From a virus (Duplodnaviria; Caudoviricetes), in IMG/VR virus record IMGVR_UViG_3300017978_000121, positions 1-28,163 of that record: a stretch of DNA of 28,163 bases; one strand, given 5' to 3'. Both the position numbers and the translations under genes were made by a program. Positions 11,559 to 23,589 of the stretch are shown piece by piece (within the stretch, counting starts at the first letter, position 1; every line of letters starts with the position of its first letter). Under the pieces are notes generated by a model. It had not been told where the DNA came from. It saw nothing but the letters and a program-made list of their open reading frames with translations, and searched no databases.

Positions 11559-12864
11559 TTTTCAATTCCTCTAAGGCTATGTCGGACACCGCACGCTTGT
11601 CGTGCAGCGCCGCCCATATACGTTCGTCAATACTCTTTTCGGTCAGCATCACATAGACCCAGACATCCTTTGTCTGGCCGCTGCGGTGCAGGCGTCCGAC
11701 TGTCTGTTCGTACAACTCCAGCGACCACGGCAACGACAGGAATACCATGTGGCATCCGCCATGCTGTAGGTTCAGGCCGTGGCCTGCCGACTTAGGGTGG
11801 GCCAACAGCAATTCGACCTGCCCTGCGTTCCAGTGTTCGATGACGTTGTCGTCGTCCATTGTCTTTGCGTGCGGGAAGCGGCGCTTCAGTTCCGCCAACT
11901 CTTCCTGATATGTGTACGCGACGATGGTGTTCGCCCGCTGGTTCTCCGCCAGCAGTTCTTCCAGCCGGTCGAACTTGTGGCTGCTGAACCAGATGGACGG
12001 CGTGCCAGCGTCGCGGTTGTAGACAAAGCCTGACGCCATCTGTTGCAGCTTGGTTGTCACCGACGCGGCGTTCTGCGCTACGATCTGGTCGTCGCCAAAG
12101 CGCACGACATATTCGCGCTTCATCTTTTCGTATGGCTTGCGGTCGTCCAGCGCGACGCGCACCTCCGTGACGTGGCATGGCGGCAGCTTGTCCTTATACT
12201 CGCCCGGCTCCAGCACGAACGTCGCAGGGCGGATGCGCTGCATGACTTGCTCCAGCGCGCCGGCTGCGGGAACCCACTGGCCGAAGTCGCGGTTGGTGCA
12301 GATGAAATACTGCTGCATGAACGCACCCTTGGCACGGCCCAGCAGCCCTTGGTCAATGATCTTGCACTGACCAAAGACATCCTCAAGGCCGTTCGACGTG
12401 AACGATCCGGTCAGACCCCAGCGCACCTTGACGTTAGCCAGCAGCTTGTCCAGTGCCTTAAAGCGTTTGCCGCTGGGGTTCTTCAGCCGTGTCAGTTCGT
12501 CGAATACAATTCCGTCGAAGCCAGATAAATCCTCTAGCTTATCTAGGTTATCATAGTTAATGACGACGACACTGGCGTCGCTCCGCAACGCATCCACCCT
12601 TTGCGCTGGCGTGCCGACAGCCAGCGCAGGAGCGACGCCAGACCATTTCGGTGCTTCGACAGGCCACACATCCGTACAGACGCGCTTCGGCGCTACCACC
12701 AGCCAGCGTTTGACATGGCCGTCGCGCAGCATCTCGTCCATCGCCGTCAGGGTGATGGCGGTCTTGCCCGCGCCGACAGGCGCAAGGATCATGGCGCGGT
12801 CGCGCTCGTACAGGAACGTCGCCGCCTGCTGCTGGTACGGCCTTAGCTGAAGCGTTTGAGCCAT
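11551..12864 (-). CDS. SNF2-like SF2 helicase
   Basis: LRPYQ, GAGKT (Walker A), VFDELT (Walker B), LTGS, SAGHGLNLQ and QTVGRLHRSGQ. Confidence 0.93.
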   Translation of the reverse strand: MAQTLQLRPYQQQAATFLYERDRAMILAPVGAGKTAITLTAMDEMLRDGHVKRWLVVAPKRVCTDVWPVEAPKWSGVAPALAVGTPAQRVDALRSDASVVVINYDNLDKLEDLSGFDGIVFDELTRLKNPSGKRFKALDKLLANVKVRWGLTGSFTSNGLEDVFGQCKIIDQGLLGRAKGAFMQQYFICTNRDFGQWVPAAGALEQVMQRIRPATFVLEPGEYKDKLPPCHVTEVRVALDDRKPYEKMKREYVVRFGDDQIVAQNAASVTTKLQQMASGFVYNRDAGTPSIWFSSHKFDRLEELLAENQRANTIVAYTYQEELAELKRRFPHAKTMDDDNVIEHWNAGQVELLLAHPKSAGHGLNLQHGGCHMVFLSLPWSLELYEQTVGRLHRSGQTKDVWVYVMLTEKSIDERIWAALHDKRAVSDIALEELKNE

Positions 12865-13184: not shown

Positions 13185-13214
13185 GGCCGTTCAAACAGTA
13201 GAGTGAGGTACGAT

Positions 13215-15017: not shown

Positions 15018-15029
15018 CAGGGCGCGAAA

Positions 15030-15054
15030 GCCGGGGCGTGTTGGGCGTCCCGGC
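15030..15054 (+). other. Intergenic RNA hairpin without U-tract
   Basis: GCCGGGGCG-TGTTGGG-CGTCCCGGC, 9 bp including one G-U. Confidence 0.5.
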
Positions 15055-15079
15055 AAGTAGCGGAAGAGTGAGAACTATC

Positions 15080-15505
15080 ATGGAAATTTGGAAAGACATA
15101 CCCGGCTATGAACGGTGCTACCAAGTTAGCAACGAAGGCCGCGTCAGATCGTTAGACCGCGCCATTACGCAGATGTCGCGCTGGGGCGCATTATACACGA
15201 AATTTGTCGGCGGCGTTGACCTTCGCCCCGGGCGTATGCCTGCGGGCCATTTGTCCGTATCTTTGGGGCGAAATAACTCCCATTGTGTGCATAAGCTGGT
15301 CTTATTGGCGTTTGTCGGCCCCGCGCCGGAAGGGCATGAATGTCTACATCAAAACGGCGATCCGTCAGATAATAGGCTTGAGAACCTTCGCTGGGGTACG
15401 CGCGGCGACAACATCCGCGACGCAATTCGTCACGGCACTTGGTTGACGCCAGCGCGTTTGGCCGCGCTTGATAAAGGCCGGGCAACGCGATGGGGGCATA
15501 AATGA
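15080..15505 (+). CDS. Free-standing NUMOD4-HNH homing endonuclease
   Basis: EIWKDIPGYE..YQVSNEGRVRS (NUMOD4) and VHKLVLLAF...CLHQNGDPSDNRLENLRWGT...N (HNH). RBS before ATG 15080. Confidence 0.92.
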   Translation: MEIWKDIPGYERCYQVSNEGRVRSLDRAITQMSRWGALYTKFVGGVDLRPGRMPAGHLSVSLGRNNSHCVHKLVLLAFVGPAPEGHECLHQNGDPSDNRLENLRWGTRGDNIRDAIRHGTWLTPARLAALDKGRATRWGHK

Positions 15506-17457
15506 CTATTTTATATTGTGATTTCGAAACACGGAGCCGGTGCGACCTTCGCAGCCGCGGCGTGTATAACTACGCGCAGGACGCCAGCACCGACGTGCTG
15601 TGTATGTCCTACGCATTTGATGACGAAGACGTGCGGACGTGGCTACCCAGTGAACCTTTCCCGCAAGCCGTGCGTGACCACAAGGGGCTGGTGTACGCGC
15701 ACAACGCAGCGTTCGAGCGCCTGATATTCTGGTATGTCCTTCAGGTCGATTTTAAGCTGGAGCAGTTCTACTGCACCGCAGCGCAGGCCCGCGCCAACTG
15801 CGCGCCGGGTAGCCTTGAGGATGTGGGCCGCTTCGCTGGCGCCACCATGAAGAAAGACCATCGCGGCGGACAACTGATCCGCGCGCTGTCCATCCCGCAG
15901 TCCGACGGCACATTCCGCGAGGACGCCGCGCTAATGCAAGAGATGGTTGACTATTGCGAACAGGATGTCCGTGCCATGCGTGCTATCGCGCAGGCGCAGC
16001 GTCCGCTGTCGGCTGATGAGTTGGCTGACTATCACACCAACGAGCGCATCAACGACCGCGGCGTCCTGCTTGACAGGCCGCTGGCGCTGGCGGCTGTGCG
16101 CTACGCTGAAACTGAACTAGCAGAGATACAGTCCATCGTCGCAGAGGTGACGCAGGGCGAGATAACATCCGTCCGCAGCCCCAAGATGAAGAAGTGGGTG
16201 CTGGACCGCGTAGGGCCGCAGGCCGTAGCCGTGGCGACCGTGATGAAGGACGGCGTCGAGAAGCTGTCCATTGACAAGAACGTGCGCGCCAACTTACTCG
16301 TGCTGGCAGAGGAGAACCCAGATGAAGTGCCATCGGAAGTCGCGGAAGTCATCCAGTGCGCGGACGATCTGTGGGCATCGTCCGTTGCAAAGTTCCAACG
16401 TGCGGCGGCGCTTGCTGATGAGGAAGATTTTCGCGTTAGAGGAGCGTTCGTATTTGCTGGAGGCAGTGCTACTGGACGCGCTTCATCGTTTGGGCTTCAG
16501 GTCCACAATTTCCCCCGCAAGTGCGCCGCCGACCCTGCATTAGTGCGGCAGGCTATGGTGCGCGGCCACCAGATTGTTCCTGAGTATGGCCGCCGCGTGA
16601 CGGACGTGCTGAAGGGTATGCTACGCCCTGCGCTGATGGCCGACACAGGCAAGCGGCTGGTCGTTGCCGATTGGGCCGCCATCGAAGCGCGCGTCACGCC
16701 GTGGGCGTCCAACAGCATCTTTGGCGCGAACAAGCTGGACATCTTTGCCAAGGGTGAGGACGTCTACAAGCACAACGCTATGGCGACCTTCCATGTCGGC
16801 TATGACGAAGTCGATAAAGACCAGCGCCAAATCGGTAAGGTTCAAGAGTTGGCGTGTGGCTTTGCAGGCGGCGTCGGCGCGTTCGCCAGCATGGGCCGCA
16901 TCTACGGCCTGATGATGTCGGAGAGCGACGCGAAGCGCATGGTGGACGCATGGCGCAGGGCTAACAAGTGGGCCGTGCCTTACTGGTCTGGCCTTGAGGA
17001 AACCTATATGCGCGCCATGCGGAACAAGGGCCGCGAGTTTACCATCGGGCGCGTCACATATTTATTTGACGGGCTGCATCTTTGGTATGCTCTTCCGTCT
17101 GGCCGTGTGCTATGTTATCCTTTCGCCCGTTTCGACGAGGAAGGCAATCTGACCTATGCCAAGGCTTCATGGAAGCCAGCCGCAGACGCTAAGGAATGGC
17201 CTAGAGCGCGGCTGTGGCGCGGTCTGGCGTGTGAGAATATCACGCAGGCTGTCGCTAACGACCTGCTGCGCTACGCCTTGCGTCGGTTGGATGACGTGAT
17301 TTTACACTGCCACGATGAAATCGTCTTGGAAGTGCCAGAAGAAGATGCAGAGGCCGCCGCAAAGCGGCTGGAGCAGATTATGTGTGAGCCGCCACCTTGG
17401 GCGTCGGGTTTACCCCTGAACGCAGAAGTGGCAATTATGAGTAGGTATGGCAAGTAG
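15502..17457 (+). CDS. Family A DNA polymerase (APSE/SPO2-like) with 3'-5' exonuclease
   Basis: DFET, AHNAAFE, YCEQD, TGR...QVHNFP. Motif A DWAAIEAR, motif B RQIGKVQELACGF, motif C HDEIV. Confidence 0.95.
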   Translation: MTILYCDFETRSRCDLRSRGVYNYAQDASTDVLCMSYAFDDEDVRTWLPSEPFPQAVRDHKGLVYAHNAAFERLIFWYVLQVDFKLEQFYCTAAQARANCAPGSLEDVGRFAGATMKKDHRGGQLIRALSIPQSDGTFREDAALMQEMVDYCEQDVRAMRAIAQAQRPLSADELADYHTNERINDRGVLLDRPLALAAVRYAETELAEIQSIVAEVTQGEITSVRSPKMKKWVLDRVGPQAVAVATVMKDGVEKLSIDKNVRANLLVLAEENPDEVPSEVAEVIQCADDLWASSVAKFQRAAALADEEDFRVRGAFVFAGGSATGRASSFGLQVHNFPRKCAADPALVRQAMVRGHQIVPEYGRRVTDVLKGMLRPALMADTGKRLVVADWAAIEARVTPWASNSIFGANKLDIFAKGEDVYKHNAMATFHVGYDEVDKDQRQIGKVQELACGFAGGVGAFASMGRIYGLMMSESDAKRMVDAWRRANKWAVPYWSGLEETYMRAMRNKGREFTIGRVTYLFDGLHLWYALPSGRVLCYPFARFDEEGNLTYAKASWKPAADAKEWPRARLWRGLACENITQAVANDLLRYALRRLDDVILHCHDEIVLEVPEEDAEAAAKRLEQIMCEPPPWASGLPLNAEVAIMSRYGK

Positions 17458-17468
17458 AGGAGCAAGCG

Positions 17469-19814
17469 ATGAGTGAGGATCGCACGAAGTTCATAGAGTA
17501 TATAACGGGATTGGCGACGGACAATGTGGGCGAGACAGCCCTTGTTGTGCGTCAGAAGCCGCAGCACGATAGCGACGGCAACATGATATTCCACGCAGAC
17601 GGCGCACCGAAGGCGACCTTCCCTGCGTTCCTGCCAGAAAAGACCCGCATGAAAGAAGGCGAGGCATGGTATGTCAACACAGGCTCGTTCATCGTTGACC
17701 GCTTTGTAGACGGCAAGCCAGCCGCCAAGTCGAGCAACGTCGAGTATGTGCTGTTCATGATGCTGGACGACGTTGGCACGAAGTCGAAAGAGCCGCCGCT
17801 AGAGCCGACATGGGTATTGGAAACCAGCGAAGGTTCGTTCCAGTGGGGCTACGCGTTCAGCGAACAGCCAAAGAAGGGTGACTTCTGCGCGGCCATCAAG
17901 GCGATTGCCGATGCTGGCTACACTGATCCCGGCGCGACTAACGCCGTCCGCAACTGCCGCATCCCCGGCAGCGTCAACCTGAAGCAAGGACGCAACAACT
18001 TTCCTGCGCGGCTGGTATCGTTCGACCCTGAGCGTGAATACACGCTGGATGAGATATGCAAGGCGCTGGACGTTACGCCAGAGGAAGGCGACACAGCCGA
18101 ATATAAAGCCGTGCAGTTGCGCGACACTGGGCTTGACAACGTCTTGACATGGCTTGCCGAAAAGAACCTAGTCCTAAGCACGCCCAACAATGATGGATGG
18201 TGCGGCATCGTCTGCCCTAACCATCAGGAACACAGCGACGGCATGATAGAGGCGCGCTACAAGCCGCTCGACCGCTCGTTCTGCTGCTATCATGGGCATT
18301 GCCAAGACTTAGATAGTCGCACCTTTCTTGATTGGGTAGCCAATGAAGGCGGCCCGAAGGTAACGCCGGGCTTGCGTGACGAACTAATCGCTGAACGTCT
18401 GGCGTCGATGTATGAGAAAATCTCACCGACCGAAGCGTTCCCTGATGAAGCCGCAGCGCGTGTGCGTGAAGTCGAAAAGAAAGAAGCAGGACGGCTGGAA
18501 CAAAGCGAGTGGTTCGAGCGTTTCGCCTATATACAGTCCGATGACTGCTATTTTGACATGGTGACGCGTCAAGAGATAGCGCGTAACGTCTTCAACGCCT
18601 TGTTCCGTCACGTTGACTGCCGCTCTATCCACAAGAAAACGCAGCGCGTGCAGTCGTCCATCTATTTTGACGAGCGCCGTCAGGATCGCGGTGCGCCTGC
18701 ACTGGCTGCCGTGACGTTCGCCGCTGGCGATGATACTTTGGTGACGCGCGACGGGCTGGTCTACGGCAACCGCTGGGTGGACGGACGCCCTGACGTGTCG
18801 GACAGCGACAAGATCGCAGACCATGACGTTGAGCCGTGGCTTCAGCATTGCCGCGATCTGGTAGCGGACGATGAGGAGTTAGACCACATCTTTGACGCTA
18901 TGGCGTTTAAGATACAGCATCCTAACGTCAAGATTAACCATGCCATCCTGATTGGCGGCGATGAAGGCGTCGGTAAGGACAGTATGTTCCAGCCGTTCCT
19001 GTGGGCGCTGGGCGGTCAGCACTGGCGCAATCGGTCAGTCATTGAGGCTGGCGGCTTGGACAGCCAGTGGGGTTATGCGCTTGAGGCTGAAGTTGTCATC
19101 CTGAACGAGTTAAAGGAACCAGAGGCGCGCGAACGTCGCGCTATGGCTAACAAACTAAAGCCGCTGATTGCTGCGCCGCCTGAAACGCTGACAGTCAACC
19201 GCAAGGGTATGCATCCCTATGAGTTGGTCAACCGCCTGATGGTGATTGCATACACGAACGATCCGCTGCCTATCACGCTGCCGACACAGGACAGGCGTTG
19301 GTTCTGCGTGTGGACGCACGCGCAGCGTATGGCGCCAGCCGCAGCAGACAAGCTGTGGAACTGGTATAAGAACGGCGGATACGAGAAGTGCGCCGCATGG
19401 CTGTGGCAGCGTGACGTATCGCGGTTCAACCCTGCCGCTGCGCCGCCTGTCACCGAATGGAAGCTGAACATGGTCGAGCATGGCATGAGCGTAGCGGAAA
19501 GCTATCTTGTGGATATGATGCGCGAGAAGGCGGGCGTGTTTGCCAATGGCGTCATCGGTGGGCCTTTCCACCGCGTCTGTGACGCGCTGGCGGTCAACGT
19601 GCCGGCTGGCGTGAAGATACCACAGGCGGCGCTGCTACACGCGCTCAAAGAGGCTGGCTGGATTGATATGGGCCGGATTGGTTCAACTGACTACCCGACT
19701 AAGAAACACATCTTTGTCTCGCCTGACGTGAAGAAACGGAACAAGTCCGACTTGCGCCGCTTGGCGGAAGACTTGCCCAAGTCGAGCATCATGCCAAACA
19801 TAGGCAAGAATTGA
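17469..19814 (+). CDS. Primase-helicase fusion (RepB-like primase, Zn finger, SF3/DUF5906-like helicase)
   Basis: LDDVG, ETSEGSFQWGY, RIPGSVN; CPNHQEH...CYHGHC; Walker A GDEGVGKD; VILNE; YTN...DRRW. Confidence 0.88.
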   Translation: MSEDRTKFIEYITGLATDNVGETALVVRQKPQHDSDGNMIFHADGAPKATFPAFLPEKTRMKEGEAWYVNTGSFIVDRFVDGKPAAKSSNVEYVLFMMLDDVGTKSKEPPLEPTWVLETSEGSFQWGYAFSEQPKKGDFCAAIKAIADAGYTDPGATNAVRNCRIPGSVNLKQGRNNFPARLVSFDPEREYTLDEICKALDVTPEEGDTAEYKAVQLRDTGLDNVLTWLAEKNLVLSTPNNDGWCGIVCPNHQEHSDGMIEARYKPLDRSFCCYHGHCQDLDSRTFLDWVANEGGPKVTPGLRDELIAERLASMYEKISPTEAFPDEAAARVREVEKKEAGRLEQSEWFERFAYIQSDDCYFDMVTRQEIARNVFNALFRHVDCRSIHKKTQRVQSSIYFDERRQDRGAPALAAVTFAAGDDTLVTRDGLVYGNRWVDGRPDVSDSDKIADHDVEPWLQHCRDLVADDEELDHIFDAMAFKIQHPNVKINHAILIGGDEGVGKDSMFQPFLWALGGQHWRNRSVIEAGGLDSQWGYALEAEVVILNELKEPEARERRAMANKLKPLIAAPPETLTVNRKGMHPYELVNRLMVIAYTNDPLPITLPTQDRRWFCVWTHAQRMAPAAADKLWNWYKNGGYEKCAAWLWQRDVSRFNPAAAPPVTEWKLNMVEHGMSVAESYLVDMMREKAGVFANGVIGGPFHRVCDALAVNVPAGVKIPQAALLHALKEAGWIDMGRIGSTDYPTKKHIFVSPDVKKRNKSDLRRLAEDLPKSSIMPNIGKN

Positions 19815-19840
19815 CATGGGATAACGTGCAATGATATAGG
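19811..19840 (+). promoter_or_regulatory. Sigma70-like promoter with no downstream ORF
   Basis: Perfect TTGACA overlapping the primase stop codon, N18, then TG-A-TATAGG (extended -10). Confidence 0.65.
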
Positions 19841-19844
19841 TTCA

Positions 19845-19911
19845 AGGTCGGTGTTGCTCCGCTGGCCTGATTAAACCCCCGGCGTCCTCACTCCGCCGGG
19901 GGTTTTTATTT
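19845..19911 (+). ncRNA. Putative two-hairpin antisense small RNA
   Basis: Hairpin 1 AGGTCGGTG-TTGCTC-CGCTGGCCT. Hairpin 2 AAACCCCCGGCG-TCCTCACTC-CGCCGGGGGTTT. Both loops are complementary to phage RBS regions. Confidence 0.65.
19873..19911. terminator. Bidirectional intrinsic terminator between convergent operons
   Basis: 12-bp stem with TTTTTATTT on + and TTTAAT on -. Confidence 0.85.
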
Positions 19912-20085
19912 GTCTGCTGTTGCAGACCTTTTCTTCAGTTTCCTATAGCGGCCTTCAACAGAGGCAATCGTCAGCCCCATTCGCTCGGCCATGTAGGCTG
20001 GCCTTAAGCCGTGCTCGTAATAACTTATCAATTCTGCATCCATTTCAGGTGTCCAAATGCGCCTAGTCCGTTTTACTATTGGCAT
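19906..20085 (-). CDS. GcrA-N/Myb-like HTH protein, 59 aa (not in ORF track)
   Basis: MPIVKRTRRIWTPEMDAELISYYEHGLRPAYMAERMGLTIASVEGRYRKLKKRSATADK*. AGGAG RBS. Confidence 0.7.
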   Translation of the reverse strand: MPIVKRTRRIWTPEMDAELISYYEHGLRPAYMAERMGLTIASVEGRYRKLKKRSATADK

Positions 20086-20246
20086 TTGCTTTGCTCCTGT
20101 AGTGCTGCGATGGCGGCGTCTGCCAATTTAAAGCAGCCATCCCTCTCTCTGGGTGAAACATACATTTGGTTGTCAATGTCCTCATTATACTGCGCATGGC
20201 ATATCTTGTTAGCTATCGCCTCACGCTCATTCTCAACGTCCTGCAT
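20076..20246 (-). CDS. Hypothetical protein
   Basis: GGAGG RBS before ATG 20246. Ends LADAAIAALQEQ. Confidence 0.6.
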   Translation of the reverse strand: MQDVENEREAIANKICHAQYNEDIDNQMYVSPRERDGCFKLADAAIAALQEQSKCQ

Positions 20247-22835: not shown

Positions 22836-22874
22836 AGTTTCTCACTCCTATAATTGGCACTAGCGCCATCCTCG

Positions 22875-22892
22875 CGGCGGATTGCTCCGCCG
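22875..22892 (-). promoter_or_regulatory. GNRA-capped leader hairpin carrying an sRNA seed match
   Basis: Minus strand CGGCGGA-GCAA-TCCGCCG, which contains GCGGAGCAA. Confidence 0.5.
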
Positions 22893-22902
22893 TCCGGTGG
22901 TG

Positions 22903-23589
22903 TTAGTTTTTCAAGAATGTGTCTGTCAGCGTCGTAGCTACATACTCTTCGGCATATGTCCGCATAGGCATAAGGACGGCAAGGCAATCACTACGCGGTG
23001 CACGCGTGTCGTTTCGGTTCTCCATAGGGCGCGGGAAGGTCACAAGCGCCGGTTGGTCGCCGTTCTGGTGCAAGCGAAACTGGCAAGCTGCATCCTTCTT
23101 ACCGTCGCGCAATGCTTGTGCGATTTTACCAAGCGCAGCGATATATTGAGGCTGATAGTGGCCAGCCACAAGCGTGTCAGGCGCAGTCGGGATAATGCGC
23201 GTCCATTCGGGGAATGCACCGTCAACCGGTGCAAAGTGAATGCGTGCATTACCGTATAATATCCACCACAAGCCTTGCGCGTCGCGTTCGACGACATAGT
23301 AAAGACCTTTCGACCGTCCTGCAGCCTTGCCAGCTTGCGCGATAGCGTCAGACGGCACGATAACACCTGCAAGGTTCTGCGCGTGAACGTCGTAAGCTGG
23401 CCGAACGTCCTGCAGCTTGAATGCGTCGTTGCAACGTCCAGCGAATGCCATGTGACCGTTGGTTGCCACGACGAACCCACGAGCGTCCAGAAAAACACCT
23501 TTAAGGTAGTGGCGCGTCTCTTCTTTTGATACGCATTGCATAGCCGCGTCAACAAAACCGGCGTCGATTGAGATAGAGATAAGTGTCAT
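22903..23589 (-). CDS. DNA polymerase III beta-clamp-like protein (two-domain)
   Basis: SKEETRHYLKGVFL, VATNGH, DGAFPEWTRIIP and VLMPMR parallel DnaN domains 2-3. Confidence 0.8.
   Translation of the reverse strand: MTLISISIDAGFVDAAMQCVSKEETRHYLKGVFLDARGFVVATNGHMAFAGRCNDAFKLQDVRPAYDVHAQNLAGVIVPSDAIAQAGKAAGRSKGLYYVVERDAQGLWWILYGNARIHFAPVDGAFPEWTRIIPTAPDTLVAGHYQPQYIAALGKIAQALRDGKKDAACQFRLHQNGDQPALVTFPRPMENRNDTRAPRSDCLAVLMPMRTYAEEYVATTLTDTFLKN

Follow-up and report, generated by a model that had tools for sequence, protein, structure and literature searches.

A putative two-seed small RNA predicted to restrain early and replication genes in a lineage of podophage-like viruses

We analyzed a stretch of 28,163 nucleotides (nt) of viral DNA (Duplodnaviria; Caudoviricetes), the IMG/VR record IMGVR_UViG_3300017978_000121, hereafter called the window. 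Between the convergent primase and early genes of this record lies a short element which, judged from sequence, is likely to be a phage-encoded, trans-acting small RNA (sRNA) with two pairing seeds that represses translation of the phage's own early and replication genes. A promoter-like pattern, covarying stems, fixed loop cores and complements of the loops at translation starts are directly observed. An initial annotation of the same DNA had proposed an RNA of this kind, and all the complements that it listed are present in the window; beyond that proposal, the main targets turned out to be hairpin loops themselves.

The predicted sRNA, of about 63 nt, occupies 19846-19908 on the plus strand, its start being inferred from the -10 spacing, and the same nucleotides form the 3' end of the replication operon messenger RNA (mRNA). 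Hairpin 1 (19846-19867, +) has a G-U-rich stem and the loop UUGCUC(C), which carries seed 1 with the core UGCUCC. Hairpin 2 (19873-19911, +; stem-loop 19873-19905) exposes seed 2 in the 9-nt loop UCCUCACUC (19885-19893), whose core CUCAC is invariant. Its GC-rich stem is followed on the transcribed strand by a U-tract from 19903, so that it is predicted to be an intrinsic terminator. The promoter boxes, both hairpins, the U-tract and the loop UUGCUC with its closing C all lie where the initial annotation had placed them. The element folds with -34.8 kcal/mol (z = -5.3), and none of 200 shuffles was equally stable. Rfam gave no family match for it, either in the window or, at gathering score, in seven relatives, and the matches below gathering were weak (NsiR1, 28 vs 39 bits; anti-hemB, 19 vs 49.5 bits). 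Contigs from seven sequencing runs cross both ends of the element; they may be DNA and are neutral on the question of a transcript, and among the 12 runs searched none contained half of the query words. Nine relatives (L029, L033, L050, L051, L056, L060, L065, L068 and L071) have three hairpins, the inserted middle one apparently being a copy of hairpin 1 that has diverged.

The element and its targets are conserved together in a group of uncultured phages from aquatic settings. Among the 80 closest primase loci, the unit follows the primase stop codon in all 79 that reach past the stop, and two further scans covered divergent subclades and the outgroup. When unique primase genes with both ends were counted, the CUCAC terminator loop occurred together with a GTGAG at the primase start in 80 of 80 genes of at least 65% identity (the single miss of the script, L252, carries its loop in a bulged stem), and both were absent from all 77 genes below 65%. 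Hairpin 1 is likewise present in all of the 80. An alignment was made of 37 of the 47 representatives, the three-hairpin and subclade B forms being left out. In it, 14 of 19 stem pairs show two-sided change, 92.6% of cells pair and neither loop core (CUC, CUCAC) varies; in hairpin 1 all seven pairs show such change. Because the structure was drawn from these same sequences, it is favoured in comparisons with controls. A covariance model matched the plus strand in 11 of 11 in-clade sources, and the other 52 sources gave only weak minus-strand matches of at most 27 bits.

The strand can be read from the same sequences. In 65 unique versions, the wobble polarity of hairpin 2 on the plus strand gives 10 G-U against one A-C, and a mean of 6.2 T follow the stem on the plus strand against 2.0 on the minus strand, which identifies the plus strand as the functional one. 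This bears on a different explanation, in which a protein binds the start hairpins of PolA and primase as translational operators, as with T4 gp43, and the terminator loop counts either as a decoy, the same motif being present on the minus-strand early transcript, or as a DNA signal, for example for priming. One hairpin operator close to the start of a phage DNA polymerase gene is indeed known (PMC3014915, excerpt), hairpin 2 also folds on the minus strand with GAGUGAGGA in its loop, and the early genes are transcribed towards it. However, the polarity favours the plus strand, hairpin 1 folds well on that strand only, and neither the match of loop 1 to early Shine-Dalgarno (SD) sequences nor the plus-strand promoter-like pattern would be explained. 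We therefore regard the operator explanation as quite improbable.

Upstream of the element, a sigma70-type promoter is predicted at 19811-19840 (+). It consists of TTGACA (19811-19816), which overlaps the primase stop codon TGA, a gap of 15 nt, and an extended -10 box, TG-N-TATAGG (TG at 19832-19833 and TATAGG at 19835-19840). A strict promoter scan of the window did not list it, because the rule requires a T at the final -10 position, which is missing here. Upstream of the unit, TTGnnn-N15-TGnTA is found in 87 of 89 in-clade regions and in 2 of 78 outgroup regions, against a background of 0.3% per 60 nt; the in-clade figure is not an independent one, since in-clade sequences served to derive the pattern. 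More telling are the divergent representatives, of which 13 of 15 have the boxes within primase-coding DNA. There the amino acids vary, yet the boxes always fall on an NTT and an NTA codon, classes that make up 10% and 1.9% of comparable codons. Boxes kept on rare codons are the trace expected from selection on a DNA signal, and this favours a separately transcribed RNA. The promoter looks dependent on the host polymerase. In many relatives the promoter spacer is palindromic, which is not the case in the window (19815-19831); such a spacer might be an operator for a small DNA-binding protein, for example the product of the adjacent helix-turn-helix (HTH) gene.

If there were no separate transcript, the replication mRNA might pair in cis, its own terminator loop folding back on the start hairpins of PolA and primase, or a fragment processed from its 3' end might do the pairing. 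Such an arrangement would fit the position of the element, which is always directly behind the primase and likely serves as the terminator of that operon, and the two most conserved targets do lie on the same transcript. Against it stands the promoter-like pattern, which is held at fixed spacing even within coding sequence. In addition, the early targets are on the opposite-strand transcript and would thus be reachable only in trans. We consider either form of this explanation unlikely.

Loop 2 is predicted to target hairpin loops. A hairpin over the primase start codon (17466-17483, +) has a 5-bp stem and the loop GAGUGAGG (17471-17478), which is complementary to loop 2; the loop is predicted to be unpaired with a probability of 1.0, and the AUG is partly in the stem. 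Codons 2-5 of the primase are synonymously invariant in 44-46 of the 47 representatives (46/46, 46/46, 44/44 and 46/46 where conserved). By comparison, only 10 of 437 other conserved primase columns are fully invariant, with a mean modal-codon share of 0.73. Given that this site lies inside the coding sequence, an SD function does not explain its invariance. Variants of the primase start keep the stem through G-U or shifted pairs (L032, L285 and L277). A scan with the 18-mer of this hairpin returned 120 stretches. One was an unrelated match and 44 could not be judged because of their short length, which left 75 with downstream DNA and a long reading frame. The loop hairpin follows within 170 nt downstream in 74 of the 75 usable stretches, and the exception is a frameshifted copy with the element further on.

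The second site lies after the SSB-like gene (15066-15073, +). In most relatives this is the PolA start; in the window an inserted HNH gene has come between, and the stem is degenerate. The initial annotation had read 15066-15072 as the SD of HNH and PolA, which holds for HNH (start 15080) and fails for PolA (15502), which has no match of at least 7 nt of its own. AGTGAG occurs within 85 nt of the SSB-like stop codon in 40 of 42 in-clade regions, the remaining two having it further on, and it stays in place when another gene precedes PolA, as in the window. The stems around the fixed AGTGAG change by compensated substitutions (GGATG/CATCC, AGAAG/CTTCT, GGTTG/CAACC and TGAAG/CTTCA); stems of at least 5 bp are found at 68% of 37 sites against 11% with shuffled flanks, five of the 42 pattern hits having been excluded beforehand for lack of a core. 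G-U pairs place the target hairpins on the sense strand. The presence of the loop-2 complement in hairpin loops at both the primase and the PolA start suggests loop-loop kissing. Before loop strain is counted, the predicted energies of the loop helices are about -10 to -14 kcal/mol; thermodynamic cofolding, which cannot model kissing, gave no usable structure.

Between the SSB-like stop codon and the PolA-site hairpin there is another structured element (15024-15061, +), conserved in relatives, in which GAAA and (G/A/U)AGUA strands close a variable GC-rich stem. It resembles a bulged-G/loop E motif and has no Rfam match; possibly it is a site of protein binding or processing. A similar element occurs in some outgroup phages (L375, L345 and L335).

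A third, facultative target of loop 2 is the SD of the DUF2800 exonuclease gene (13201-13208, +; start 13215), where the site is found in 21 of 40 in-clade and none of 36 outgroup cases. Counted at starts by family, AGTGAG occurs in 37 of 41 primase, 24 of 40 PolA, 17 of 34 exonuclease and none of 36 SSB-like genes; it was not seen in the listed terminase, portal, capsid or tail families, nor in outgroup orthologues (0/32, 0/41 and 0/35). All four copies of GAGTGAG in the window outside the element are at translation starts. On the minus strand, the SD of the early open reading frame (ORF) 22835 is GGAGTGAG (22841-22848), an 8-nt complement of loop 2 plus its closing C, and in subclades A and C this sequence is present in 23 early starts and in no late one. 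The leader module of ORF 22835 has GGAGTGAG in nine of 15 unique versions, GGAGCAAA in two and neither in four, so that either of the two addresses can stand in the same module, depending on the genome. This early leader module (22850-22905, -, in the window) consists of a variable long hairpin and then a short fixed hairpin before the SD, and it stands before unrelated genes. A further match in this leader, at 22882-22890, had been proposed as a target and probably is not one: most of it falls in the stem of a hairpin with a GCAA tetraloop, some 50 nt before the start, and it is replaced in seven of the 15 versions.

Loop 1 has its complements in SD sequences. GGAGCAA is the SD of the primase-helicase gene by sequence match (17459-17465, +) and of the 59-aa HTH protein (20091-20097, -), and GGAGCA is found at the primase start in 19 of 41 unique in-clade cases and none of 32 outgroup cases. 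The window holds four copies of GGAGCAA, namely these two SDs, one in a leader and one inside a coding sequence; the last (12247-12253), within the helicase gene, is the single internal match that had been noticed before and was rejected as a target. Of 46 starts in the window, five have a Watson-Crick match of at least 7 nt to a loop, all of them at early or replication genes, whereas 3000 pairs of decoy loops with the anti-SD core retained average 0.75 such starts (P = 0.002).

The same bias was seen across subclades A and C, where GGAGCA occurs in 82 of 486 early starts (82 of the 224 that bear GGAG) but in only 2 of 573 late starts (2 of 103); early starts of the outgroup have it in 5 of 377 (5 of 126). 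Counted by gene family, the values are 55/129 early, 2/20 late and 5/84 outgroup early, so that the loop-1 signal covers 55 gene families. After GGAG, early SDs most often continue with CAA (68) or TGA (26), which are the two loop complements. The loop of hairpin 1 is replaced in subclade B and reads GCUCU in one subclade, and where loop 1 differs, early GGAGCA drops to background in two clades (2/41 in the AUGCUCU class vs 44/136; 1/19 in subclade B vs 45/129). In L074, a hammerhead type II ribozyme (16249-16320, -; 38.9 vs 37 bits, Rfam gathering) immediately precedes an early gene whose SD is GGAGCAA.

These controls argue against an ordinary terminator between convergent genes, with a complementarity that stems from SD composition and shared ancestry. 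The position between convergent genes, the canonical terminator shape and the single evolutionary origin would be accounted for. However, the outgroup terminators at the same place, where found, have short, variable loops, whereas here the loop core is fixed while the stems change, and neither the SD-matched and decoy controls nor the frozen in-frame primase codons would be explained. We consider this origin very unlikely.

It might also be that the RNA activates its sites by opening the 5-bp hairpins in which the start codons are hidden, or that it acts chiefly on host mRNAs or ribosomes by mimicking an anti-SD sequence. In favour of this, part of the primase AUG is in the stem, the loops are rich in pyrimidines and resemble an anti-SD, and loop 1 of subclade B has no enriched phage target (0-3 of 339 starts for each motif tried). 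This seems improbable to us, given that the loop extensions beyond CUCC match phage-specific SD extensions and that all pairing sites are on the SD or the first codons. Both lie inside the ribosome footprint.

Several observations count against repression by a two-seed RNA, and the lack of a subclade B target is one of them. All phages of at least 65% identity fall on a single branch (SH-aLRT 100; tree of 47 representatives and 16 outgroup rows), so that their co-presence of loop and site amounts to one event; the RNA and its targets map to that branch, and the two loop-1 changes represent one clade each. With so few independent events, P values overstate the evidence. Base-for-base covariation of loops and targets is modest, and here the initial proposal is less well served than by SD-matched enrichment, by loop/target co-conservation and by the absence of sites at late genes. 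Cognate pairs match slightly better than permuted ones at PolA (7.39 vs 7.12, P = 0.0035) and primase (8.34 vs 8.26, P = 0.025). There are single compensations in two relatives: in L032 the loop UCUCACUC is matched by the primase site GAGUGAGA, and in L289 (loop CCUCACUUC) the site has shifted to the SD position and covers 11 nt, including two stem bases. The shared invariant core is 5-6 nt, L251 and L286 pair over 6 bp with the primase, and the exonuclease site is missing in 19 of 40. Loop 1 is backed by enrichment and less by covariation, as it has no base-level covariation with its targets: AUGCUCC genomes still favour GGAGCAA (36 vs 7), GCUCU genomes have not gained AGAGCA (1 of 114 starts) and retain the primase GGAGCAA, and the AAACUCC class retains GGAGCA in three of seven. 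Finally, the early leaders are repeated modules, which may inflate SD counts, and gene starts came from our own caller, whose score rewards SD-like sequence.

With these points weighed, translational repression by the RNA is still our preferred reading, and we propose the following mechanism. The sRNA would be made from its own promoter, starting near 19846. Loop 2 (UCCUCACUC) would kiss the 7-8-nt loops of the PolA and primase start hairpins, covering the SD in PolA or nucleotides +3 to +11 in primase, and would also pair with GGAGUGAG SDs, while loop 1 (UGCUCC) would pair with the GGAGCA(A) SDs of primase and many early genes. Because all sites are on the SD or the first codons, pairing should block initiation whether the target stem is clamped or melted. 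From a host-polymerase promoter, the RNA level would climb with time and with genome copies. The rising RNA would then act as negative feedback, holding back replication proteins and switching off early genes, and late genes, having no sites, would be spared.

Of the three roles proposed in the initial annotation, early-to-late shut-off is retained in this mechanism, and immunity or lysogenic copy control is the least supported, although a carrier state is possible. No integrase, CI-like repressor or ParA was found among the 44 window ORFs or among 101 accessory proteins of at least 85 aa from 17 near-complete relatives (best five families per protein), in line with the earlier remark that no CI is visible. 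No prophage was found in species-representative genomes; two short binned contigs matched, both ending before the primase end. The phages are thus apparently non-integrating, which makes a role in immunity less likely. There are about equal reasons to accept and to doubt a more far-reaching picture. In it, a virulent lineage would run its early-to-late switch and its replication brake with one RNA of about 63 nt and no repressor protein, through two addresses (GGAGCAA and GGAGUGAG) in the ribosome-binding sites of dozens of unrelated early genes, and with kissing-loop receptor hairpins at the polymerase and primase starts it would constitute a trans-encoded, multi-target kissing-loop regulon.

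Few mechanisms are known by which small phages that lack an RNA polymerase or repressor of their own shut off their early and replication genes. As analogies, the initial annotation had named c4 RNA, which has two short seeds, P4 CI RNA and alphaproteobacterial anti-SD-loop sRNAs. ColE1 RNAI and R1 CopA control plasmid replication by kissing-loop antisense pairing, with a dose tied to copy number; they are cis-encoded and fully complementary to one target, whereas the element is trans-encoded and has 6-9-nt matches to many targets. The c4 RNA of P1/P7 is, as predicted for the element, a small trans-acting phage RNA directed against the phage's own genes (PMC8546580, excerpt). P4 CI RNA is of the same kind. 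The short single-stranded seeds of c4 are complementary to the phage's own mRNA, and the loops of the element show such complementarity. By model and context the element is not a c4 RNA: the C4 model of Rfam had no match up to E 5 in the window and none at gathering score in seven relatives, and the context differs. Whereas c4 lies in an immunity operon, controls an antirepressor operon and is processed from a leader precursor, the element lies behind the primase, with no antirepressor among the scanned proteins (44 window ORFs and relatives' proteins of at least 85 aa). It has a predicted promoter and terminator of its own, the conserved promoter-like pattern suggests a primary transcript, and its targets would be PolA, primase and dozens of unrelated early genes, the core ones being hairpin loops.

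The cuckoo RNAs of Alphaproteobacteria also have two to four adjacent hairpins with variable stems, and fixed pyrimidine-rich loops, each with CCUCCUCCC (PMC4615179, excerpt). In contrast, the loops UUGCUC and UCCUCACUC differ from each other and lack CCUCCUCCC, and the element is encoded by a phage in which matching targets are present. The T4 gene 43 operator is likewise a conserved-loop hairpin near a phage DNA polymerase start, but it is bound by the polymerase itself (PMC3014915, excerpt), whereas in the present phages the complement of the loop is conserved as an RNA loop at another place in the genome, and the primase start has the hairpin loop as well. The SAS repeats of cluster K mycobacteriophages are extended repeats at the SD position of non-structural genes only, and their authors left open whether RNA or protein binds them (PMC3203893, excerpt). 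They differ from the present sites in sequence and host group, and here a candidate binding RNA with complementary loops was found.

The self-regulating phage RNAs sar, OOP, aQ and 24B_1, most of them antisense RNAs, act on single genes of lysis-lysogeny control (PMC12197685, excerpt of a 2025 review), and a 2010 review, in its excerpt, states that no small trans-acting regulatory RNA had been characterized in T4 (PMC3014915). A full-text literature search, with most matches judged from listings, found no description of this element. Its short motifs were not found in four supplements of the IMG/VR structured-RNA catalogue (PMC10690425, excerpt), and the RNA may be among the 10,006 candidates of that catalogue. 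Since it comes with a putative regulator, a ranked set of targets and naturally occurring variants, the element lends itself to reporter assays in a laboratory strain, for which the phage need not be cultured. If the reading is true, it would give the start-associated repeats of other phages, so far unexplained, a concrete model, and could serve as a compact design for loop-loop riboregulators.

The window is a podophage-like record with late genes, a helicase operon, a replication operon and a minus-strand early operon. The replication operon contains the DUF2800 exonuclease, the SSB-like gene, HNH, PolA and the primase-helicase (17469-19814, +; 781 aa; RepB-type primase, DUF5906/VapE-like). 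The label SSB-like was assigned from gene position; PHROGs gives nucleotidyltransferase and Pfam gives no match. The closest annotated phage is uncultured, with 53% identity in the primase, and has another promoter-hairpin-gene layout behind the primase, without the two loops. The gene for the 59-aa HTH protein (19906-20085, -), whose stop codon overlaps the U-tract of the element, had been described as GcrA-like; its homologues do show a weak likeness, below the Pfam cut-off in two of five scanned, and GcrA is absent from the listing for the window protein itself. This sub-threshold likeness is the sole basis for suggesting an alphaproteobacterial host. The NUMOD4-HNH endonuclease gene (15080-15505, +) is inserted between the regulatory hairpin and PolA and takes over the loop-2 site, and other relatives have different genes inserted at the same point. 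A GroES-like co-chaperonin gene is also present in some relatives (L296, 13022-13291; L236, 10249-10515).

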